64,000 nucleotides of DNA, taken from NCBI GenBank assembly GCA_010093705.1, contig MU006121.1, positions 1 to 64,000 of the forward strand. The letters are read 5' to 3'. The position numbers and the translations under genes are program-made. This document shows, one piece after another, positions 1-64,000 of the stretch; position 1 is the first letter of the stretch; each line of letters starts with the position of its first letter. This stretch comes from Patellaria atrata CBS 101060 (lineage: Eukaryota). The notes below the pieces were generated by a model, which was not told the DNA's origin, did no database searches, and was given only the letters and a program-made list of their open reading frames with translations.

Positions 1-775
1 ATAATTATAAAAATAAAATTTAAATTATATAAATATATAATAATATTATTTAATTTAATTAATATTTTAATAATATTTTAAGTAATAATTTATTATATAT
101 TAAAAGAATATTTAAATATATTTATAATTATTTATTTAAATAATATATTAATATATATAAATAGAATTTTTAAAGAATATAAAAAATATATAAAGAAAAT
201 ATTAAGAAAATTATAAAAATAAAACTTTTAATATATTTAAATAAATATAAATTTTATATTAAAAAAATAAAATTTCTAGACTTTATTATTATTATTAAAA
301 GTATATAAATAAATTTAAAGAAGATAATTATAATTAAAGATTAATTAATATTAAAAAATATAAAAAATATATAATTATTTTTAAACTTTATAAATTATTA
401 TAAAAAGTTTATTTAAAAATATTTAAAAATAATAACACTATTATTAAAATTAATAAAGAAGGAAAATATTTTTATTTAAATAAAAAAGATATAAAAAATA
501 TTTAATAAATTTAAAAGAAAATTTATAATAATATTTATCTTAATTATATTTAATTTAAAGAAATTAATAATATTAAAAATTAATATATTTAATTATATAA
601 TAAATATATATATAAATTAGTTAGATAAAAAAGAATAATTATATTTAATAATTTTTTATTTATAAAAGTTTATAATTATAAAGTTAAATTATAATATTTA
701 TAATAAAAAGTAATTAATTATTATCGATATATTTAAATAATAAAGATTATATTTTAAAGAATTTAAATATTATAA
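1..775 (+). mobile_element. Second, truncated copy of the same Gypsy RT/RNase H segment
   Basis: Direct repeat of ~3333-4085. YLDD relic tat tta aat aat at 133-144. Confidence 0.85.
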
Positions 776-900
776 TAATATATTATAATATTAATTCTAT
801 ATTTTTTATATTAAATATTTAATTTATTTATAAGAGATTTTTATTAAATTAAATATAGAAAAAATCTTTAAATATTAATTAATTAAATAAAAGATAATAT
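775..900 (-). repeat. ~125-bp inverted copy of 6176-6300, possibly an LTR end
   Basis: Reverse complement matches 6176-6300 (ttaattaattaatatttaaagat...atatagaattaatattataatatattatt). It starts where the first RT-RH copy is interrupted. Confidence 0.7.
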
Positions 901-2439
901 ATTATATTAATTTATAATTATTATTAATTAATAATTATATTTTATTAAATAAATCATGTTATTTAACTAATAATATTATAATAATAAAATTAATTAAGCT
1001 AAAAATTAAAATAAAGATTTTTTAAATAATAATATATTAATATTTATTATAATCTTAAATATAATATTTTAAATATATTAATAATATATATTAATATATA
1101 ATAAAGTTCTTATTTATTATTATCTTTAATATTATATTATTTAATTATTTTATTAATTATTAATTTATTTATATTTATAAAACTTCTTTATAAATAATAT
1201 ATTTATAATAAATATTTTACTTTTATTTATAATATTAAAATATAATTTAATAATTTAATAATTTTTTTAATAAAAAATATAATTTAAATTAATATTATAT
1301 AATAACTTTTAATAATTTAATTAATTATTTAGTTTATAAAATTTTATAAATTATATTAAAAAAATTATTTAATAAAATAAATCTATTATTTAAATTAAAT
1401 AATAATATAAGATATTTCTATTATTTAAAACTCTTTATATAAGATTAATAAAGATAATAAAATTTTTTTAATAATTATTAATAATAATAATATATATTAT
1501 AAATTAATTAATATAAAATTTATAATTTAAAAATTACTTTTAATTATTTACTTTATAAATATTATAAATTATATCTCTTTATAAAATAATAGAAAGTTAA
1601 ATTTATAAATATAATAAATATTTTATTAAATAAACTTTTATATATTTTATTTATATACTTATTTAAAAGAAAAGAAGTAATTAATATTAAATAATTAAAA
1701 AAGATATAATATATATATAAATATATAAAAAATAATTATTTTATTCTTTAAATAAAAGATATTAAATTTTAATATTATATAACTATTATAGCTATTAATA
1801 ATAAATAATTAATAAATATTAATTATATATATTTTTATAAAATTATTAAAATATTATAATTAAATAAAATTAAACTAATTAATTATCTAATAATTATTAT
1901 TAATTATTAATATTTAGTTAATAAATAGATTTTAATATTAATTTATTTAATAGATTTTATTTATAAAAATAATAAAAAAATATATTTAATAATTATAATT
2001 TATTTATAATTATATAATTATTTAATTATTTATTAATCTATTATATTTAAATTTAAAATAACTTTTAATATTATTATAATCTTTATTATAAATTTAATTT
2101 TATCGAAATTATATATATCTTTATTAAGAATATTATATAATAAATATATTATCTTAATATATTTAAATTATATATTAATTATCTCTAAATTCTTATATTT
2201 AATATATTATAAATAAAATCGATAATTTTATTTTATTTATAATTTTAATTAAATTTTAATAAATTAATTAATTTAATATTTTCTATTTAATTAAAAGAGA
2301 ATTATTTAATTATATATAATTAATAAATAATTTACTATTTATTATATATTAATTATTTATAATAGAAATTTATATTAATTAAACTTTAATATTTATTATA
2401 AATTAAAAAATATAATTTTTAAATTTTTTAAAATATTAT

Positions 2440-5400
2440 AAAATAATAATAAAAAATAATAATATTAATTAATAATAATATTATCGCTTTATTTATTTTA
2501 TTAAATAAATAAAAAAGAAAAATATATTATATATAAAAAAAAAAACTTTAATTATATTATAAATAAAAATATAAAATATAGAAAAAATTTAATTAACTTT
2601 AAAATTATATTAATAAAAATTAATATATAAAGAAAAATTATTATTTAATATATTATTATAATTAATATTAAAAATATAAATATAATTTTAAAAATAGATT
2701 AATTAAAAATAATAAATTTAAATATTAATTAAAAAATAAAAAATATTTAAATTAATTAAAATATTTTAAAAAAAAATAAAGTTAAATAAATAAATATTAT
2801 TATATTTATAAAATATATTTAATATTATAATATAATTAAAATTTATAAAAATAAATTTAAAAATATAAATATAATATAATTTAAAAAAATAATATTAAAA
2901 AATATTTATAAAATATTTAAAATATTTAAAATATTTAAAAAATATAATAAATTAAAAAATTTATTTAAAAAAGATATAATAATTATATTTATAAATTATT
3001 AAATATAAAATTATAATTTAATTTTATCTATTTATTATTATAAAAATAATATAAAATATTTAAGAAATATATTTATATAAATTTAAAAAGAAATATATAT
3101 AATTTAATAAAAGTTTAATAATTTTAATAATTTTATTTATATTAAAAAAGAATAATAAATTAAGATTATATATAATTTATAAATAGTAAAATAATATTAT
3201 AATTAAGAATAAATATTTATTATCCTTAATTTTAGAAATTTAAGATAAATTATAAAAAGTAAAATAATTTATAAAATTTAATATTTATAATAATTATTAT
3301 TAAATTAAAATAAAAAAAGATAATTATAAAAGATAATTATAAAATAAAATTTAAATTATATAAATATATAATAATATTATTTAAATTAATTAATATTTTA
3401 ATAATATTTTAAATAATAATTAATTATATATTAAAAAAATATTTAAATATATTTAAATATATTTATAATTATTTACTTAAATAATATACTAATATATATA
3501 AATAAAATATTTAAAAAGTATAAAAAGTATATAAAGAAAATATTAAGAAAATTATAAAAGAAAAAACTTTTAATATATTTAAATAAATATAAATTTTATA
3601 TTAAAAAAATAGAATTTTAGACTTTATTATTATTATTAAAGATAAATAAATAAATTTAAAAAAGATAATTATAATTAAAAATTTATTAATATTAAAAAAT
3701 ATAAAAAATATATAATAATTTCTAAATTTTATAAATTATTATAAAAAGTTTATTAAAAATAATAAAAAAGAAAAATATCTTTATTTAAATAAAAAAAAAT
3801 ATAAAAAGTATTTAATAAATTTAAAAGAAAATTTATTATAATATTTATTTTAATTATATTTAATTTAAAGAAATCGATAATATTAAAAATTAATATATTT
3901 AATTATATATTAAATATATATATAAATTAATTAAATAAAAAAAAATAATTATATTTAATTATCTTTTATTTATAAAAATTTATAATTATAAAATTAAATT
4001 ATAATATATAAAATAAAAAGTTATTTATAATTATTAATATATTTAAATAATAAAAATTATATTTTAAAGAATTTAAATATATTATAAAAATTTAGTTAAA
4101 TTATTAAAATTTAATAAACTTCTTTATAATAAAATAGTTAAATTTAAGATAAATAAAATAAATAAAAATATTTATATCTTTTAATTTTAAGATATTCTAT
4201 AAATTAAAAATTAAAAATAAATTAACTAATATTATAAATAAAAGATTTAATTATTAAAAAAAATTAATATATAATATAATATTAAAAAGAGAAAATAATA
4301 TAATTATTTATAATTAATTAAAATTAGTTAAAATATTAATAATTAAATTTATAAGAAAATAATAAATTTATAATATTTATTAAAAGAATAATATAATAAA
4401 GAAATTTTAAAAAAGTAATAATTTTAAAATAATAAAAATAAATTTAAAAATATAATTATATAATAAATTATATAATAAATTATATTTATATTAATAATAT
4501 TATAAAAGACTTTTATTAAAAAAATTTATAAAATATTAATATATAATTATTAAAGTATTAATAAAATTTTAAAATAAATTTTAAGAAATTATTATTTTCT
4601 AAAAATAAAGAATATAATAAAATAAATTATTTTAAAATATAATAATTATATATAAAATAAAAGTATAAAATATATATATTATAAATAAAAATAATATATT
4701 AAATTATTAAAATAAATATAAAATTAAATAATTATAAATTTTATTATAAATTTATTAAGATTTAAAAATCTAGTAATAAAAATAGAATATAATATAATAT
4801 TAATTATTATAGAATAATTAATAAAATTTATCTATTTTATATTAATAAAGATAATAATAATAGTATTATAAATAATAATACTATAAATAATAATATTATA
4901 AATAATAATATTAATTAATTATTAAATATTAAAAAAGATTATTTTAAATTAAAATAAATTATTTAAATTAATATTTTAAAAAACTTTAATATAAAGTTTA
5001 AAGATAAATAATAAATTATTAATAAACTTTTATTTATAAATAAATAATTAAACTAAAAAAATAAATTAATTTTTAAAATAATATTTATATAATTATATAA
5101 ATTATTAATAAAATAATTAGATAAAATTATTATTAATAATATAATTTATATATAATAATATAAAATTTAATATTATAAAAATTTTACTTTTCTATTTAAA
5201 TTATAGTTTTAAATTAAAAGTATATTATAAATCGAGAATAATTTAAAATATTTTATAAAAAGTAATATTAAAAGTTTAATAAATTAAAAAATTATATATA
5301 TAATTATTATAAAATATAATTTTCTAGATAATAAAAGTTATAAAATATAATAATTAATATAAATTATTAAAATTAATCTTTAAAAAAAAGAATAAAGTTT

Positions 5401-5800
5401 ATTTATTATAAAAAAACTTTAAAATAAAATAATTTAATAAAAAACTAAATTATAAAAAATTAATTTCTTTAAAATTAAATAAATTAAAAAAAAAGTTAAT
5501 TATAAATTAAAATTATTATAAAAAATAAAGATATATTTAATTTTTTAAATATTATTTTTAAAATTAGTATATATTAATATTAAATCTTTAAATATAATCT
5601 ATAAATTTTAAAGAAAAAAATATTTATAAAATAAAATAAATTTTAAATTTATAATAAATAAAGAATTAATATAAATATTTAATAAAATAGAAAAATTATA
5701 AATATATAAATAATATATAAAAATTATTTTAATATTTATTAAATTATAAATAAAAACTTAAAAAGTTTTATTAATAAAATTAGAAAATTCTATTTTTAAA
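2440..5800 (+). mobile_element. RIP-inactivated Ty3/Gypsy (chromovirus) pol relic: PR-RT-RH-IN-chromodomain
   Basis: Allowing only G>A/C>T reversion: ~2462 ata tta att aat aat aat att atc gct tta ttt att = ALIDSGATALFI (protease); ~3130-3500 ILFVPKKDGKLRLC...NRYPLPLI...MPFGLTNAPATFQ...YLDD (tac tta aat aat at 3474-3485); ~4180-4245 FDFKIFYKPG..N..ADA.SR (RNase H end); 5040-5160 TDGQTERVNQ.LEQYLR.YVNYQQDNW..LLP.AQFAYNN (integrase); ~5460-5570 GPFKI...YKL.LP..MKIHPVF; 5676-5726 YLVKWKGY....NTWEP (chromodomain). Domain order is Gypsy-type. Confidence 0.88.
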
Positions 5801-6901
5801 AATAAAGAAATTTAAACTAAATTAATTAAGGAAAAATTAAAACTATAAAAAAAAATAAAAGAAAATAAAGAAATTTATTATTTTTTAATTTTTTATTTTA
5901 AAATTTTAAACTTTTTAATAAAATTAAATTTATAATAAATTATTTTATTCTTTTTATATTTTAATAAATAAAATTATATATAAAAATAATAAGTTTAAAT
6001 ATAAATAATTTTTTTAATATCTTTAATTATTATAATAATATAATATAATTATAATAATTATATTTTAATTATCTTTATTATTAACTATTAAATATAGAGA
6101 TTAAATTAAAAAATAATAATATTATAAACTTAATATTTATATATAATAATTCTATTTTATTAAATTTTAATTTAATTATTTTTTATTTAATTAATTAATA
6201 TTTAAAGATCTTTTCTATATTTAATTTAATAAAAATCTTTTATAAATAAACTAAATATTTAATATAGAAAATATAGAATTAATATTATAATATATTATTA
6301 TAATTATATTAAATTAAAAGTAAAGTTTTATTTTTAAAATATTTAATTTATTTTAATTCTTTTAAATTATTATTAATTTATACTTTAATTTATAAATAAT
6401 ATATTTAAAATAGAAATTAGAAAAAAGATTTAAATAATAAATATAAAATTAATAAAAATAGAAAAAATAAAAAGTTAATATTATATAATTAAACGATTTA
6501 ATTTAAATAATAAAATATTAATAGTAAATTATATAAAATTTAGTTTTAAATATTTTAAAAGAAAAAAAGAAAATATATATATAATTTAATAAATAATATA
6601 TATATATTATTTTATATTTAATTTAAAAGATTAAAATTTTAAAATAAAAATTAAAAAAAAGAAAAATAATATTATAATTATAAGTTAATAAAAGTATATA
6701 ATTAATAAATTAAGAAAATAAAAAAACTATAATATAATTATAAAAAAAACGATAATATAAAAATTATATAATATAAATAAAATAAATATAAAAGAGATTT
6801 TATATTTAATATAAAATAAATATAAAATAAATATAATAAATATAAAAAAAATTCTATATTTAATATATTTAAAAATATAAAATAATAAAATTAAATTCTA
6901 A

Positions 6902-9010
6902 AAAATAAAAATATTTAAAAATAATTTCTTTTTTTATATATTATAATTTTTTATAATTATTTTTACTATTTATTTTATTTATAAATTTAAATATTATAAA
7001 TTTAAATTTAATTTTATTTATTAAATTATTTTTATATAATATATTTTATCTTATTATAAATATTATTTAAAATTAAAAAATTAATAAATTATATTATTAT
7101 AAATATTATTTATTATAAAATTTATTTTATTAAAATTATAAAAATTATATATTTTAAATTATATATTTTATTTATATATTAATTATTAAATAAAATTATA
7201 TATTTATTATATTTAAATTTTTATAAAAAGCTTTTTAAAAATTATAAATATAAGAAAAATATATTTTTAACTTTAATTATTATTTAATAAAATTCTTTAT
7301 TTAATACTTTTTAATATATTTTATAATATATTTTATAAAAAATTAATTAATTATCTTTTTTTTATAAATTAATTAAGATAAAAACTTTTATATAATTTAA
7401 TTTAAAATATATAAAATAATTATCTTTTTTTAATTTTTAATAACTTTTAAAAATTAAAATAATAATTATATTTAAAAGATTAATTATTTATTTTTATATA
7501 AAAAATAATTTTAAAAATATTATAAATTATTATAATTTTTTAATAATTAAATTTTTTATTATATTTTAAAATTTAAATAATAAAAATATTTTTATTTTTA
7601 TTTAATTATATAAATTCTATTAATTATAAAAAAAATATTATTATAAAAAAAAATTATAATATATAAAAAAAAATTATTTATTTATATATATTATTTATTT
7701 ATTAATTATATTAAATATTTATATATTAATAAAAATATTTAATTTAATTTATAAATATTTTTTTATTTATTTAATTATTTTATAAGATTTTATTAATTTA
7801 AAAAAAAACTATTTTTAATATATTAAAGTATAAAATAATTAATATATTAAAATATAAAATAATTAATATATTAAAGTATAAAATAAATATATTATTATAA
7901 ATAATATTTATTATAAATAATATTTATTATAAATAATATTTATTATATTTAAATCTTTATAAAAAAAATTTAAAAATTATAAATATAAGAAAAATATATT
8001 TTTAACTTTAATTATTATTTTTTAAAATTCTTTATTTAATATATTTTAATATATTTTATAAAAAATAGATTAATTATCTTTTTTATATTAAATAATTAAA
8101 GTAAAATCTTTTATATATTTAAATTTAAAATATATTAAATAATTTATAATAATTATAAATTATAAGAATATATAAATAATAAATAATAAATAAAGAAAAA
8201 AAAGAAATATTATTTAAAAAAAAATTATAAATAAAATAAATAATAATAAATTATATAATTTAAATATTTTATTTATAAAAAATAATTAAATAATTAAATA
8301 ATTAAAATAATTAAATAATTAAAATAATTAAAAAAGATTATATAATTTAAATATTTAAATATTTAAATATTATAATTATAAAAAATAATTAAAATATAAA
8401 TTTATTAAATTAATTATAAAGAATAAAAATATTTAAAAATAATTTTTCTTTTATATATTTAAATTCTTTATAATTATTTTTATTATTTATTTTATCTATA
8501 AATTTAAATATTATAATTTTAAATTTAATTTTATTTATTATATTATTTTTATATAATATATTTTATTTTATTATAAATATTATTTAAAGTTAAAAAATTA
8601 ATAAATTATATTAATAATTTAAAATATCTTTATTATATATATTTTATTATTTTATTAAATTTACTTTAATAATTAATTATATTAGATAAAAAATTAATTT
8701 TATTTTTAATTTTATTTTATTTTATTTTAATAAATATAAACTTTTATTATAATATAATTATTTTTTTTTAATTTTTATTTATTTTTAAAAATTAAGATAA
8801 TAATTATATTTAAAAGTTTAACTATTTATTTTTATATAAAAAATAATTTTAAAGATATTTTAAATTATTTTAATTTTTTAATAATTAAGTTTTTTATTAT
8901 ATTTAAAATATAAATAATAAAAATAATTTAATTTTTATTTAATTATATAAATATTATTATTATAAAAAATAATTATAATATATAGAAAAATATATTATTT
9001 ATTTATAAAT
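6902..9010 (+). repeat. Shuffled dispersed duplications and short tandem arrays within the AT block
   Basis: ~6902-7096 matches ~8421-8613; ~7205-7410 matches ~7941-8140; ~7415-7680 matches ~8754-9010. A 24-bp tandem (aatatattaaagtataaaataatt) x3 at ~7818-7890 and a 16-bp tandem (attataaataatattt) at ~7893-7945. Confidence 0.75.
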
Positions 9011-18441: not shown

Positions 18442-21400
18442 TCACTTCTTCCGACTAGGGGCTATGAATGGTTTATTCAAGCTGGAACTCCAACCTTGAA
18501 GGCTCCTGCGTGCGCCTAATGTGCGTTTCTGTGATTGCCGTGCTTGAGTAAGACTAGTCGAGTGAAACATTGCGGCAGGCTTAAGATCACTTTTATAAGA
18601 AGGGTGGGCTACTATGTCCCGATCGTCATCCTGTGGGTCTTTTTGCGCATGGTCGTCGATATCAGTCTCGGGTTTTATGGGTGAGCTAGACAAAAAGACA
18701 TATGCTTTGTGCTCTTCACTGTCTTGTTTGACTTGTATAGGACGGCCTGGGATTATCGTTGAACGAATCTTGTATTCAAACTGTTGCACTAGCAAAGGAT
18801 TTGAATCCGGAAGAAACCCTTGGGCATTTGGAATCTCGTTCAACGGTTTTTGTGGAGGAAAACCTTGCCGGGGTATGAGGTGTTGATCCGCGACTAATGC
18901 TTTTCTACCAAGGGTAGATTGTTCTGAGGGCTTCGGTGTAGTGACAATACCATCTTTGGCATCCCTTGAAATCAAAAAGTTTTTAATGCTTCCTTGATCG
19001 ATTAGCCGCTTAGAGGATGATCTCTTAGTCGCTTTACGAAGCTTTTCTTGCTTTTCATCAACGCTAATTCTGTGTTTTTTTTCTACGTCCATATGTGTAG
19101 ATGATGCTGCTGTTTGCAGTGCCGTTTGTCCAAAATGCGCCTTTGCACTAACGAAATCGATTGGCCTAACAGTAGATGCAATGGAGAACGTTTCAGTGGA
19201 ACTCATCGTAGTCTTCACCATTGTGGTATTGGAAGTGTCCACGCGTTCATATTTGCGGCGCTTGAACGAAGTTTGATGGGAGGGTATGTATGGTGATCCT
19301 TCATCGAAGAAGTTCGTTGTGTATTCTCCCGTAATATGATCTCCACCATGTAGCGGCCATAGATCGTCTTCTGCACGCTCTACGAGCGCTCTACCTTCCT
19401 CCATAGTGGCTTCTAGTGGGCACGGTCTTCGTAGAATCCGTGCAAGGTCTTGCGCAACTGTAAATTTAATCAATGGTCCGCTAGATTCGAAACACTTGCA
19501 CATCCGCTTATGTGATAGAAAAGATGACAAGGTTGCCGTTTCTCCTTTAGAATTCCAGATAGGCCAGCTAAGATACAGAAGAGCTTTTGCTCTAGTCATA
19601 CCGACATAGAGCAATCTCCTCTCCTCATCAGTATCTTCCGATCTGGAGTGTGGAATTGAGCCATTGTAAGTAGCTGGAATAAATACTACGGGCCATTCCA
19701 AACCTTTAGCGGCGTGAATTGTTGAGATAGTGACTTGGCTGAGGGGAGTTTCCGCAGAGTCAGCATGTTGAACTTCTGTTGACAGCGCGACATTAGCCAG
19801 AAATTTTGCAAGTATATCCTCGGGATCCGATAAATCTTGTTGTTGAACTTGGTCGATTTTTGGCAGAGAGTCATCCTCAGTGAGTGTTCCATTCACTATT
19901 GCTGCAGACATATCCGTAGCTTGAGCGACAAGTTCTTCTACGTTAGCCCAGCGCGAGTCAAAGTCTTCGGGATAAGACTTCTTTAGATATTCTTCGAAGC
20001 TCAGTCTCTTTATAATGTGAGTAATGACTTCAACTAACGAGAACGATTGAGTTTCCGAACCCATGAGTTTCTTTTGCGTGGTCAGTATGACATTCGTGAA
20101 AGTGTCAAGCCCTTTATGTGTAGATGCAGATATCTTTGTTGTCGGCTTTCGATTGCCCCTGACGCTCCCAAGGACCATCTCCCATAAGCTCGATTTAGAT
20201 TTTTCAGCTTCTTGCAGCAAACTTTTAACGGTAACATCTCCTATCTTGCGCGACGGCACATTTATGACACGAATCAAAGCATCATTGTGGTCTGGTTGGT
20301 TTACCACTCGAAGATAGTCTAAAATTATCTTTACTTCAACTCGATCGAAAAACCGATGGCCGCCAACCATACGGTAAGGTATCCCAGCTTTTCCAAGTGC
20401 GGATTCAATGTGGCGAGATAGTGATGCTGAGCGAAGAAGAATAGCGAAATCCTCGTGAGTGAGAAGTGAGCCGCCAGTAAGCAACCTTATGCGTTCTATT
20501 TCCTTGACCACCCATTGCGCTTCCACTGCTGCTGTAGGGAGCTGACGAAGAACTGGTCTCTCACCGACGCAATGAGTTGCAAGGAGATTCTTTGCAGGTC
20601 TACTCTCATCTTGCTCAATAACTTGCATCGCCGATTGCAGAATTGATCCAGAAGATCTATAGTTCTCTTCGAGCATCACGACGACTGTGTCGGAGTAGTG
20701 TTTTCGCATCAAACGAAGGTTTTCAATTTCTGCGGATCGAAAGCCATAGATACTTTGGTCCGGATCTCCAACAATAGTTATCCTTTTCCTGTTTTGTGCA
20801 AAGCAGCGCATCAATTCGTATTGAACGTGATTAGTGTCCTGGAATTCATCAATAAGGACGCATTCCACGTTTGAGACGCACTCCGGATAGCGACGAAGGA
20901 GATCCACACAACGAAGGAGCAGGTCATCGTAGTCAAGTAGATTAGAAATCCTTAACAACTCCTCATACTCGGCGTAAATAGTCGCGAATTCTTGGTGCTC
21001 GATAGATTTCTTTGAAGCGGCGTATTCCTCACAGTTTATGCTTCGAGCTTTAAGTGAGGAGATGCGTGAGCGAGCGGGGGACGGTTCAATCGTGAGCTTT
21101 AGACGTTTTATAATACGTTTGATCATGGAAAGGCTGTCTGAGCTGTCTGCGATGCCAAAATCTTTCTTGATACCGATATAATTACCATAAGTGACGAGAA
21201 AACGGCGAGCAACAGAATGGAATGTACCAAGGACCAGCTTGGTTTCATCTCCAGGAGACAGAATAGTTCGTACTCTGTCTTTCATCTCTCGGGCGGCCTT
21301 GATTGTGAAGGTACAGACGATGATATTCGACGGATTGAGACCAACATTAGCGATGAGGTACGCGACGCGTGCAGTGAGGGTTTTGGTCTTTCCTGAACCA

Positions 21401-21486
21401 GGTGGAGCGAGAACCTGGAGAACAGATGCTGGACTGGTGACAGCACTTCTCTGTGCGCCATTGAGCCCAGCTAGCAGTTGATCCAT
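18442..21486 (-). CDS. SRS2: UvrD/PcrA-family SF1 3'-5' DNA helicase (Srs2-like) with low-complexity C-terminal tail
   Basis: Intronless 1014-aa ORF. LNGAQ (Q motif), APPGSGKT (Walker A), TFTIKAA, GTFHS, IDEFQD, VGDPDQSIYGFR, ENYRS, STIHAAKGLEW, EERRLLYVGMTRAK. Confidence 0.93.
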   Translation of the reverse strand: MDQLLAGLNGAQRSAVTSPASVLQVLAPPGSGKTKTLTARVAYLIANVGLNPSNIIVCTFTIKAAREMKDRVRTILSPGDETKLVLGTFHSVARRFLVTYGNYIGIKKDFGIADSSDSLSMIKRIIKRLKLTIEPSPARSRISSLKARSINCEEYAASKKSIEHQEFATIYAEYEELLRISNLLDYDDLLLRCVDLLRRYPECVSNVECVLIDEFQDTNHVQYELMRCFAQNRKRITIVGDPDQSIYGFRSAEIENLRLMRKHYSDTVVVMLEENYRSSGSILQSAMQVIEQDESRPAKNLLATHCVGERPVLRQLPTAAVEAQWVVKEIERIRLLTGGSLLTHEDFAILLRSASLSRHIESALGKAGIPYRMVGGHRFFDRVEVKIILDYLRVVNQPDHNDALIRVINVPSRKIGDVTVKSLLQEAEKSKSSLWEMVLGSVRGNRKPTTKISASTHKGLDTFTNVILTTQKKLMGSETQSFSLVEVITHIIKRLSFEEYLKKSYPEDFDSRWANVEELVAQATDMSAAIVNGTLTEDDSLPKIDQVQQQDLSDPEDILAKFLANVALSTEVQHADSAETPLSQVTISTIHAAKGLEWPVVFIPATYNGSIPHSRSEDTDEERRLLYVGMTRAKALLYLSWPIWNSKGETATLSSFLSHKRMCKCFESSGPLIKFTVAQDLARILRRPCPLEATMEEGRALVERAEDDLWPLHGGDHITGEYTTNFFDEGSPYIPSHQTSFKRRKYERVDTSNTTMVKTTMSSTETFSIASTVRPIDFVSAKAHFGQTALQTAASSTHMDVEKKHRISVDEKQEKLRKATKRSSSKRLIDQGSIKNFLISRDAKDGIVTTPKPSEQSTLGRKALVADQHLIPRQGFPPQKPLNEIPNAQGFLPDSNPLLVQQFEYKIRSTIIPGRPIQVKQDSEEHKAYVFLSSSPIKPETDIDDHAQKDPQDDDRDIVAHPSYKSDLKPAAMFHSTSLTQARQSQKRTLGARRSLQGWSSSLNKPFIAPSRKK

Positions 21487-21663
21487 CGGAGAAAACTGCG
21501 GTATACGACGGCATGAGAAACCTCTGTTACTGAGAAGGAGGACGCGGATTGCCGTGCATTAGACAAACGCGACTAAGGAACAATGCACGTGATAATTTGT
21601 TGGGATTCAGTACAAACAGGCCAAGAGCTCTTTTATCCTTCAGACAACATCTCATAGAGACAC

Positions 21664-56329: not shown

Positions 56330-56429
56330 NNNNNNNNNNNNNNNNNNNNNNNNNNNNNNNNNNNNNNNNNNNNNNNNNNNNNNNNNNNNNNNNNNNNNNN
56401 NNNNNNNNNNNNNNNNNNNNNNNNNNNNN
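56330..56429. other. Assembly gap (100 N) flanked by poly-T
   Basis: Exactly 100 N, a common placeholder for a gap of unknown size; T runs on both sides. Confidence 0.98.
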
Positions 56430-60429: not shown

Positions 60430-62223
60430 ATGGCGGACAGTAAGGATTTGGAGTTCAAGACAGTCGCGGAGGGTGAAAGGCCTGGTAGAGATAGTGGAGA
60501 AGAACCCGTGCCAGCATATACCGATGGTGAAAGCGTGAAAGATGAACAGCTCTTCCAATACTCGGATTCCAGGAAACTGGGTGTTACGTCGGCTGTTTTT
60601 CTCATCATCAATAAGATGATAGGAACTGGGAGTATGTTGACGAGTAAAGTGCAACTCACATATATTCTCGGCTGACATTTGCGAAGTCTTCTCAACTCCC
60701 TCCGGTATCTTCGCCGCGACTGGTTCCGTTGGTGTGGCCTTATTTCTGTGGGTCATCGGTATGCAGCCTCTCCTTATGCACTCTTGATCACGCTCGGGCG
60801 ATGTTCTAATATCTCGGTTCAGGTGGAATTGTAACATTCGCCGGTCTCAGCGTTTACCTTGAGTTTGGTCTCCAGATACCGCTATCCGGGGGAGAAAAGA
60901 ATTATCTAGAGCGGGTTTACCGCCATCCCAAGTATGTTGCTACGAGTGTCTTCCTCTCCCAGATGATCCTCCTTGGCTTTTCTTCCGGAAACTCCCTTGC
61001 ATTTGGCCGTTACGTGCTCTTTGCATCCGGAAGCGACGAGCCAGATGGTTGGATAGCACGTGGCATTGCTATTGCATGCGTAACTTTTTCCGTCCTGCTC
61101 CACGGCATTTTTCCCAAATGGGGTATGAGGTTGTTCGACGTTCTGGGTGTCTTTAAAGTCATTATCTTGATTTTCATCGTCTTCTCTGGTTTTGCGGCCT
61201 TAGCTGGACATCGACGGGTGCCCAACCCGCGCAATTTCGATAACGCCTTCCGACTCGAAGAAGGTGACGGGTACGGTGGTGGAGGTGCTTATGCATATGC
61301 TACCGCGTTACTTCGTATCGTTTACAGTTACAAGGGGTGGGAAAATGCGAATTATGTCCTCGGAGAGGTCAAGGATCCACGCAAGACTCTCCGCGTCGCG
61401 GCACCCCTGGCAATCGGAGGTGTCACGATTCTCTACGTCCTTGCTAATGTAGCTTACTTCGCCGCTATCTCAAAGTCGGACCTAGCAAAATCCGAGGTTA
61501 TCGTAGCTGGACTATTCTTCCGCAATGTCTTCGGCGATAGTGCTGGTGCTAGATCGCTTCCTGCGTTTGTTGCGTTGAGTAATTTAGGAAACGTCCTCGC
61601 TGTGAGCTTTGCGCACTCTCGTGTAAACCAGGAGTTTGCCAAGGAAGGTCTCTTACCTTGGAGTCGTTTCTGGGCTTCCAACAAACCTTTTAACTCTCCT
61701 GCCCCTGCGGTAAGTGATCGATCTGTGCCCAACCGCAAATGATTTCATGCTTATGAAATTCTAGCTCTTCCTTCATTGGCTCGTCACGGTCATCGTCTTA
61801 GTAGGTCCACCAGCTGGACCAGCGTACAACTTCATTACGGATCTCTACACCTACCCAGGTGCCTGGATCAACTCCTTTGTCGCCATCGGTCTTATCTACC
61901 TTCAATACAACAAGAAAGAGAACTGGACCTCTCCATTCCACAGTTATCTTCCGGTTACAGTACTCTATTTTCTGCTCAACGTATTCTTGGCCATTGTGCC
62001 CTTCATAAAACCTGATGGTGGTTCTAACGTCGAGGGCTATCCGTACTACGTCTTTCCCGTCGTCGGCGTTGGCGTTTTACTCCTCGGTGTCGTGTACTGG
62101 GCAGTCTGGACCAAAGTCCTACCCAGAATTGGAGGCTATAGGATTGTGGGAGAGAGGAAGATTTTGGAAGATGGTGCTGAGGTGGTTAGGTATCGGAAGG
62201 TGCCAGTGAAGAAGAATTTATAG
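60430..62223 (+). CDS. MUP1: APC-superfamily amino acid permease, high-affinity methionine permease-like
   Basis: Exons 60430-60631, 60687-60758, 60823-61709, 61765-62223. NKMIGTGIFSTPSGIF, YLEFGLQIPLSGGEKNYLE, YSYKGWENANYV, multiple TM segments. Substrate is inferred from similarity only. Confidence 0.85.
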
Positions 62224-62586: not shown

Positions 62587-63963
62587 TCAATCCACCAGTG
62601 CCTTCCAGTTCTTCCTACTTACGAAGCCCATTACCCCCTCGTCCGCCATTATATCTTTACACAACCTCCCTGTGACGACACTCCTCTCCACCTCCGCGCC
62701 ACCAACGACGAACGGCTCGAATCCACCCGTCCACTTCTTCCCACTCGCCGTGCGGACCTCGACAAAACCGGAGTTCGCTTTGTCGAGCGTGAGAAACCAT
62801 TGCCGCCGATGTATGGAGCCGATCGAGTTGGTGGCTCCGGTGTAGGCGTTATTGGTGCGGATGATGGAGGTTTCTTCGCTCGAGTCTTCGGAGGCATCCG
62901 CGATGCCCGCCGAGGTATTGAGTGGCGAAGAAGAGGTTAGGTTAGGCGATGAGAGAATTCTGGGGGATCTAGTACCGAGATCACTGTCGCTGTCCACGGT
63001 GTCTTCGGCTCCAGTAGGAGGAGGTATAACTCCCTCCTTTCGATGGCGTTTCCGTGGGGTGTGTCGCTTCGGAAAGTTAGCCTGGTTTTTGGATAGGGTA
63101 CTTAAGCGGAGAGAGATCGTATAGTTTTGGGGGAGACGACTGCCCCGGAGGCGTATCCGTATAGAGCCCTTGAACGGCATTTCCATTAGTACACAGGTCA
63201 ACATTCCCACATGTGCACTCCGTCTCCTGCATCACTTACTTGTTTGAAGGCGGCAATGAGCTTTTCGTGCTCTGGTACGCCGTCGGGGTCATCTCCTTGC
63301 GTAGATTCAAGATCTTCTTCGTCGGTTTCAGGTCCTTTGGGTTGTTCTTTTGTGACGATTGAGTATTCTCCCGTGTCCCAGATCAATAGAGAACCGGTGG
63401 CATGAGAAGCAGATTCAATGAGATGATTCTAGTATCGTTTGGATTAGTTTAGTCGATCATACTACTATGCTAATCATGAGAGTGTTGAATATAGTTTCAG
63501 CACAAAGATAATCATCTTTGAGCAATACTAAACCGCTCCTTGAGAAGAACTTTACATGTACTAACTAGGCAAATTACGACATCGTGAAAAAAGAGATACT
63601 AACCCACATGTTATGCACCCTTGTCTCGATGGCCAACCTCCCACGTCGCCTGGAGTTTGGGTTCCCTGGTACTCCATAAGGTATTGCGAAAGATATGCTA
63701 CTTGTCTGAGAAAATTGCAGTCGCAAATCATCTACCAGACTCAGGTCAGTTTACGGGCGTTTTTCTCACGAGGGCGGTATCAAGATGGCGTCAACGTACA
63801 ATGTGTTCCAGCGATGGGATGGTTATGTTGGTGAATGACAAAGTGCCCTCGACCGAAATTATTCTCTTCGCTCGTATTTGTCAGATACAATGTTTTGAAC
63901 TTCTCAATGCTCAGTCGCGGTTCATCCGCCAGAACCTCTCTGCTACATTGTTGAAACTTGGTG
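62587..63963 (-). CDS. LigD 3'-phosphoesterase (PE, LigD_N) domain protein; 5' end lies outside the window
   Basis: Exons 63963-63800, 63731-63604, 63428-63240, 63168-62587. Spliced product HFVIHQHNHPIAGTHYDLRLQ...SFAIPYGVPGNPNS...RLAIETRVHNMWNHLIE...GSLLIWDTGEY...GSIRIRLRGSRL follows the bacterial PE pattern FVVQ.H...HYDFRLE...SWAVPKG...RLA...H...IWD.G.Y...L.G.KL. Confidence 0.85.
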
Positions 63964-64000
63964 CTGAAGTATGTTAGATGGTCGTCGATTTTAGCTTTGC

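Follow-up and report, generated by a model that had tools for sequence, protein, structure and literature searches.

We analysed the window, the opening 64 kb of a 166-kb contig in the 28.7-Mb genome of Patellaria atrata CBS 101060, and found a predicted gene whose product belongs to the superfamily of LigD 3'-phosphoesterase (PE) proteins, PF13298. The protein is a distinct, strongly conserved variant of an automatically annotated family, in which a split barrel is combined with a coherent loss of phosphatase-specific elements. Our best explanation, put forward tentatively, is that it may be a stand-alone, probably nuclear, metal-dependent 3'-phosphodiesterase of PE fold, which would do the first PE step and little of the second.

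Structure of the gene

The predicted gene lies on the minus strand and has, as the original prediction proposed, four exons joined at three canonical GT-AG introns, each with a branch-like site. The joined exons give a stop-free frame of 365 codons for the part within the window, from 63998 to a TGA at 62589-62587 (minus strand). In this predicted splicing, both HYDLR, split by the intron at 63799-63732, and WNHLIE form in frame exactly as claimed. The exon 1 frame stays open beyond the window end, where the contig has in-frame ATGs at 64178, 64133 and 64127. A start at 64133 gives a protein of 410 aa and agrees with the starts of homologs, and all residues are numbered from this ATG (64178 and 64127 are the alternatives). 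Further 5' exons, which had been expected in the adjacent sequence, were rejected and none is needed, because the exon 1 frame is open to these ATGs and a homolog matches exon 1 from its residue 4. The features are listed below, with equivalent Pae residues in parentheses.

63800..64000, minus strand: exon 1, in-window part; fungal-specific helical N-terminal segment, then strand 1 with His101, His103 (= Pae His42) and His105; His111 (= His48)
63799-63732, minus strand: intron 1, 68 nt, phase 1, GTACGT...CTGAC...TAG; splits the Tyr codon of HYDLR
63604..63731, minus strand: exon 2; Pfam LigD_N at 35.2 bits, register by alignment; Asp113 (= Asp50), Arg115 (= Arg52), Ser125, Tyr130 (at Lys66), Arg143 (= Arg76), Arg149 (at Glu82), His151 (= His84), Trp154
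63603-63429, minus strand: intron 2, 175 nt, phase 0, at the Trp154/Asn155 junction, GTTAGT...CTAAT...TAG
63240..63428, minus strand: exon 3; Asn155 (at Tyr88), shortened lid, strand 5 (LLIWDTG), acidic insert of ~28 aa (63350-63267), then the helix preceding strand 6
63239-63169, minus strand: intron 3, 71 nt, phase 0, GTAAGT...CTAAT...AAG
63103..63168, minus strand: exon 4, first part; barrel strands 6 and 7
62800..63102, minus strand: exon 4, insert of 101 aa in the predicted strand 7-strand 8 loop; basic NLS-like patch (63072-63037), Ser/acidic disordered stretch, conserved NAY...SIH.R motif (62850-62800)
62782..62799, minus strand: exon 4, predicted barrel strand 8, WFLTLD (Pae Trp155-Lys159), by structural alignment
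62587..62781, minus strand: exon 4, end; hairpin insert, predicted C-peptide counterpart (RSVVTGR at 62685-62665, plus helix), stop codon at 62589-62587

The intron sites recur in other fungi. Among 80 fungal metagenome loci, which include some near-duplicates, 70 had HYDLR in one piece, 6 had it interrupted at the identical phase-1 site and 4 could not be called; five of the six interrupted loci rejoin to HYDLR. At the W/N site of the same loci, a GT donor was present in 37, the sequence was contiguous in 37, and 6 could not be called. Of the 7 loci chosen for checking, 5 share the codon boundary at which intron 3 falls, and 14/80 loci read as a single open frame from strand 1 to the C-peptide. 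Splice joints were not seen in two sequencing runs, which were probably DNA from one sample, a result that counts neither for nor against the junctions. At the level of sequence, the four-exon gene model is confirmed as real, beyond chance, since exon 2 passes the LigD_N cut-off, exon 3 continues the profile, one homolog matches all four exons in order, and the intron sites recur.

Family membership and distribution

Exon 2 alone scores 35.2 bits against Pfam LigD_N (gathering cut-off 31.1; E 1.5e-8), which bears out the proposed PE homology. Exon 3 continues the profile at model positions 53-81 (E 4e-4), and full-length homologs score 95-98 bits. Against TIGR02777, three homologs score 38-41 bits, below its equivalog-domain cut-off of 144 bits.

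A search with exon 4 returned 53 proteins longer than 338 aa, all of which (53/53) carry PF13298. The named ones come from Dothideomycetes, Eurotiomycetes, Sordariomycetes and lichen-forming fungi, and many are already called PE-domain proteins. The gene had been described as invisible; it is indeed hidden from the open reading frame track, but it is not hidden as a family. A profile search gave 604 clusters at 50% identity, the best 150 of which were examined, and the nearest Atlas clusters are 99-100% eukaryotic, mainly Ascomycota. The clade is widespread in filamentous ascomycetes and auto-annotated in databases already. At the family level this is no surprise; the clade is single-copy in the P. 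atrata genome (family and protein searches) and strongly conserved across all the groups named above. In an unrooted tree of 25/84 fungal and 20/79 bacterial rows, without archaeal or basidiomycete rows, fungi and bacteria separate.

No ligase or polymerase is fused to the protein, as had been noticed from the window itself: LigD_N was the sole Pfam domain in 12/12 long homologs scanned, and a weak search found a ligase or polymerase domain in 0/6 matches longer than 704 aa. Two long matches also carry an aldehyde dehydrogenase or DnaJ domain, apparently because neighbouring genes were merged in their models. P0048 and P0082 bear the source name 'ABC1 domain containing protein', which is probably a misannotation; Pfam shows LigD_N only. 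P0085, P0092, P0100 and P0146 are divergent members with altered helix or strand-1 motifs, and in P0085 and P0146 a Tyr adjoins the Tyr88 position.

The core of the protein is, by our estimates, under strong purifying selection. From 22 non-independent pairs, many of them saturated, the dN/dS values at unsaturated dS were ~0.01-0.1 for the core, 0.08-0.2 for the C-terminal part and 0.1-0.75 for the insert.

Fold and architecture

The folded sequence was that of homolog P0004 (46% identical; 42 sequences), and the AlphaFold model is therefore of this homolog, not of the window protein. It reached a pTM of 0.73, with residues 265-304 disordered (pLDDT < 50) and the N-terminal segment predicted to be ordered (pLDDT 70-98 over residues 41-100). 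The best seven Foldseek matches of this model were all PE structures. Of the 169 residues of 5DMP, VIA-align superposed 165 on the model, at its residues 89-386 (Z 16.6, rmsd 3.2); the best unrelated fold reached only Z 2.6. With the Pseudomonas LigD PE 3N9B, 145 residues were aligned (Z 14.6, rmsd 2.6); 153/157 residues of its chain B were placed on model residues 95-379, so that 3N9B reaches model residue 377-379. These two superpositions support the PE fold foreseen in the original prediction. For 3P4H, 113/118 residues aligned to model 98-338 (Z 11.2, rmsd 1.9), and 2LJ6 chain 33-163 aligned to model 93-341. The barrel-only structures 3P4H, 3P43 and 2LJ6 thus stop at model residues 338-341. 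Both the eight-stranded barrel and the short helix after the phosphate-binding His are present in the model.

Model residues 333-338 read WFLTLD, and strand 8 of PaePE is Trp155-Lys159 in the available text of PMC3300020. Since the barrel-only structures end there and PaePE strand 8 has these limits, the model makes WFLTLD the final strand of the barrel and RSVVTGR the counterpart of the C-peptide. RSVVTGR matched the C-peptide profile with E 7e-4, a score reached by 0/60 column shuffles. Exon 4 folded alone gave a pTM of only 0.25, and this low-confidence model had no fold match with Z >= 2 among 48,161 chains; for exon 4, the one lead from the ESM Atlas, at 0.76, pointed back to the family itself. 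The C-terminal region does exist as first described, though as part of the barrel. A separate C-terminal domain was rejected, because exon 4 collapses when folded alone and the structural alignment runs through this region (strand 8 and C-peptide). Constructs cut at the Pfam boundary would lack strand 8 and should not fold.

What had been described as a linker is, in the model, an insert of ~100 aa that splits the barrel in the strand 7-strand 8 loop. This loop has a median length of 11 aa in bacteria (64 sequences) versus 99 aa in fungi (83 sequences). The insert has a basic patch in 70/83 homologs, and a near-invariant fungal NAY...SIH.R motif immediately precedes strand 8. When PaePE binds a ribo-ended primer, the largest shifts given in the available text of PMC3300020 are at Gln152-Trp155, just before and in strand 8. 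NAY...SIH.R, given its place right before strand 8, therefore probably lines the substrate face. The lid region has 19 residues in 81/83 fungal sequences versus 23 in 74/79 bacterial ones.

Active site

The set of 83 fungal proteins was drawn from 312 by motifs including HxDxR, so that counts of the HxDxR residues are circular there. Residues were counted instead in the 53 homologs found by exon 4, which were not chosen by active-site motif; most misses in these counts are gaps in partial proteins. The metal ligands, the Arg and the second His are kept, as predicted: the metal triad His103, His111 and Asp113 in 50/53, 51/53 and 51/53 homologs, and the phosphate-binding Arg115 and His151 in 51/53 and 52/53. 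The Glu and Tyr positions are substituted, also in line with the prediction. The Glu82 position is Arg149 in 52/53 homologs (Arg in 210/220 when fragments are included), and the Tyr88 position is Asn155 in 51/53, with a Tyr within one position in 2/83 proteins. The register at Tyr88 comes from a global profile alignment and from model helix 156-160, which matches PaePE helix Leu86-Asp90. In the phmmer alternative, the Tyr falls in a 4-residue deletion, and thus it is absent under either register. All four solved PE sequences compared keep E.H...Y.

The N-peptide motif (Arg14, Asp15, Glu21) was found in 0/84 fungal versus 78/79 bacterial sequences; the latter, from 84 loci, come largely from alphaproteobacteria, and the Glu was part of one search pattern. 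The fungal N-terminal segment had no match to the N-peptide profile (probability 0.3%), and a structurally different substitute for the N-peptide is possible in the fungal clade. Other changes of the clade are Gln40 to His (His101), the extra His105, and Lys66 mostly to Tyr (Tyr130, 70/83). Strand 1 carries three His in 235/248 proteins with the HxDxR motif versus one in bacteria. Arg143 and strand 8, on the face that binds nucleic acid, are retained. Judged from sequence, the clade belongs to the PE superfamily but departs from the canonical two-step enzyme in the Tyr, the Glu, the N-peptide and the TIGR02777 score.

Published work on bacterial and archaeal enzymes assigns these residues to the two steps. 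In the available text of PMC3082917, alanine mutants of the two His, the Asp, the Arg or the second His abolished PE activity, and the Tyr-to-Ala mutant kept 18-23% diesterase conversion and accumulated the 3'-phosphate product. The same text has the N-peptide residues serve the monoesterase and gives the Gln40 position a hydrogen-bonding role. Glu82 is monoesterase-specific in the available parts of PMC3300020 and PMC8656161, and the diesterase requires a 2'-OH on the penultimate nucleotide (PMC3300020, available part). According to the accessible portion of PMC3258152, CkoPE, without the N-peptide, gives ~90% 3'-phosphate product and prefers single strands, and PE catalysis is sensitive to metal geometry. 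It was suggested in the available text of PMC4797286 that N-truncated PEs depend on another phosphatase.

Proposed activity and alternatives

In the reading we prefer, the fungal protein would be a 3'-ribonucleoside trimmer that leaves a 3'-phosphate. Mn2+ would be bound by His103, His111 and Asp113, and the scissile phosphate would be held by Arg115 and His151. The terminal nucleoside would be clipped from a strand ending in at least two ribonucleotides, and the 3'-phosphate left behind would then be removed by another enzyme, most simply the fungus's own PNKP-type 3'-phosphatase (PNK3P family). The likeliest setting would be break repair, where the protein would trim DNA ends that carry ribonucleotide tails, added by a PolX polymerase in Ku-dependent repair. 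We infer this metal, activity, product, localisation and pathway because every first-step residue is kept and three second-step elements are absent; the phosphate would be left to another enzyme because Tyr, Glu and N-peptide are all gone. To our knowledge, there is no characterised PE that lacks these three all together. The pathway is the weaker half of this reading, and an RNA substrate would fit equally well. The gene had been called a candidate for end-healing; since the lost residues are those for phosphate removal, the healing step, this probably picks the wrong one of the two steps. The altered specificity suggested at the same time is plausible from the residues changed.

The genome has PNK3P, two PolX loci and two Ku loci, Ku lying on other contigs than the PE gene. 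Since fungi commonly have Ku, PolX and PNKP, the presence of these genes is only permissive for trimming. A Usb1-family RNA 3'-end enzyme is also encoded. No link to DNA repair was found in the neighbour genes or in the flanks of the 80 loci. The conserved new residues (His101, His105, Tyr130, Arg149, Trp154, Asn155 and NAY...SIH.R) may rebuild or redirect the site, since their conservation across the clade is strong and the Tyr mutant is a weak enzyme.

If the natural substrate is RNA, the same chemistry would serve a 3'-end trimming or marking enzyme with a Usb1-like role on a different fold, by which some class of nuclear RNA would come to end in a 3'-phosphate or 2',3'-cyclic phosphate. 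The need of the PE diesterase for a penultimate 2'-OH (available part of PMC3300020) and the preference of CkoPE for single strands (available part of PMC3258152) agree with RNA, as do the missing link to repair genes and the fact that the fungal additions with the highest conservation immediately precede strand 8, the place where PaePE shifts most with a ribo-ended substrate. Nevertheless, we consider RNA somewhat unlikely, because the cited papers used ribo-ended DNA primers to assay the PEs that they characterised, the presence of Usb1 means that the U6 job is probably taken, and no result points to an RNA target. A broader idea, which we also rate as rather improbable, is that the PE fold was rebuilt in filamentous ascomycetes as an end-marking enzyme, generating and not healing a 3'-phosphate or 2',3'-cyclic phosphate on RNA or ribo-tailed DNA, by means of a binding motif peculiar to the clade and a disordered, regulatory insert in the substrate-binding loop. 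If true, filamentous fungi would have a step of nucleic-acid processing of their own, defined by such an enzyme.

It is also conceivable, though unlikely, that the protein heals ends in both steps, with new residues in place of those lost: Tyr88 would be replaced by Asn155, Trp154 or Tyr130, and the N-peptide by Glu43, a conserved acid of the N-terminal helices. Five of the six catalytic residues are kept, the candidate residues are highly conserved (Glu43 51/53, Trp154 52/53, Asn155 51/53 and His105 50/53 in the exon 4 homologs; Tyr130 70/83), and the N-terminal segment of P0004 is predicted to be ordered at residues 41-100. However, the position of Glu82 has reversed from acid to Arg, the N-terminal segment does not match the N-peptide profile, and the genome has a dedicated 3'-phosphatase gene. 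The three conserved His of strand 1 (235/248) and the shorter lid (19 vs 23 residues), together with the sensitivity of PE catalysis to metal geometry (available text of PMC3258152), would fit a remodelled metal site, in which His101 and His105 bind a second or different metal and the substrate is another one, e.g. a nucleotide or a 3'-blocking adduct. We think this very unlikely, as His101 sits at the Gln40 position, with its hydrogen-bonding role (PMC3082917, available text), and the face that binds nucleic acid (Arg143, strand 8) is retained. The loss of one of six canonical catalytic residues and the long low-complexity inserts might even suggest a catalytically dead, metal-stabilised protein that binds nucleic-acid ends or acts as a scaffold, but we regard this as extremely improbable, given the strong purifying selection on the core and the near-invariance of all five residues that PE activity cannot do without in mutants.

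Comparison with known systems

The closest proteins are orthologs annotated 'DNA ligase D 3'-phosphoesterase domain-containing protein' in Pseudocercospora (P0004), Aspergillus clavatus (P0019) and Macrophomina (P0007), with 43-50% whole-length identity among the best 14 listed and the same motifs, inserts and intron sites. The P. atrata protein differs from them only in private changes. These are a 4-residue insert before strand 1 (residues 93-96; window 63857-63846, minus strand), absent from 53/53 homologs, and Arg338 (window 62808-62806, minus strand), where 53/53 homologs have Gln.

The barrel, the post-His84 helix and the C-peptide are shared with Pseudomonas LigD PE (3N9B, 2LJ6) and Methanocella paludicola PE (5DMP), as are the metal triad, Arg52, Arg76 and His84. 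Unlike these PEs, the fungal protein is stand-alone and lacks Tyr88, Glu82 and the N-peptide motif; Gln40 is replaced by His and Lys66 mostly by Tyr, the lid is 4 residues shorter, and there are two inserts (one of ~100 aa, in the strand 7-8 loop) and extra N-terminal helices. It also differs from LigD and the archaeo-prokaryotic NHEJ module in that no fusion or clustering with ligase, polymerase or Ku is seen. The minimal archaeal CkoPE (3P4H) is likewise stand-alone and without the N-peptide and is, from the available text on it, a natural precedent for mostly stopping at the 3'-phosphate; unlike the fungal protein, it keeps Glu and Tyr and has neither the C-peptide nor the inserts. Putative PE homologs are likewise fungal in the basidiomycetes Microbotryum and Cryptococcus. 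All six catalytic residues are stated to be strictly conserved there (Fig. S2 legend, PMC4797286), and, compared by this legend only, the ascomycete clade, which lacks the Tyr, breaks the published statement.

The joint loss of the phosphate-removal elements is a natural experiment on the coupling of the two PE steps, and one sharp prediction for this eukaryotic branch of PE can now be assayed cheaply. Literature searches found no experimental study of the ascomycete PE clade or of any fungal PE. In Aspergillus papers, 'ligD' usually means DNA ligase IV. A 2010 PNAS paper reportedly was the first to list eukaryal PE homologs, and sequences of the ascomycete clade may already be in it, which limits a claim of novelty. 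The available text of a 2026 review on fungal DNA repair (PMC13451438) has 0 occurrences of LigD or phosphoesterase, and that of PMC10140301 has 0 occurrences of 'fung'.

Genomic neighbourhood

The PE gene is flanked by an amino-acid permease gene and a gene for an isocitrate/isopropylmalate-family dehydrogenase, both unrelated to NHEJ. The permease gene is convergent (window ~61087-62223, plus strand) and ends ~360 bases from the PE stop codon. The divergent neighbour, of the Iso_dh family, is homoisocitrate-dehydrogenase-like by eye, and further upstream lies a Knl1 RWD-domain kinetochore gene (L002 4593-5720, plus; 7290-7973, minus). Among the 80 loci, only 2 weak flank matches were found, which gives no conserved neighbourhood, and Rfam had 0 matches in 9.5 kb. 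L095, L101, L112, L119, L127 and L152 are related loci that share flanking genes with each other and not with the Patellaria window, a local synteny of one lineage; one of these flanking genes reads by eye as an NADPH oxidase or ferric reductase.

Elsewhere in the window, a 1038-aa stop-to-stop frame at 18442-21558 (plus strand) is by eye a UvrD/Srs2-type helicase; it lies 41 kb from the PE gene, with no sign of linkage between them. A run of 100 N at 56330-56429 is either a gap in the assembly or a stretch of sequence that was withheld. Window positions 1-9000 have 3-4% G+C and consist only of low-complexity A/T arrays with no ORF of at least 150 aa, and this part looks like heavily RIP-mutated or centromere-like DNA.
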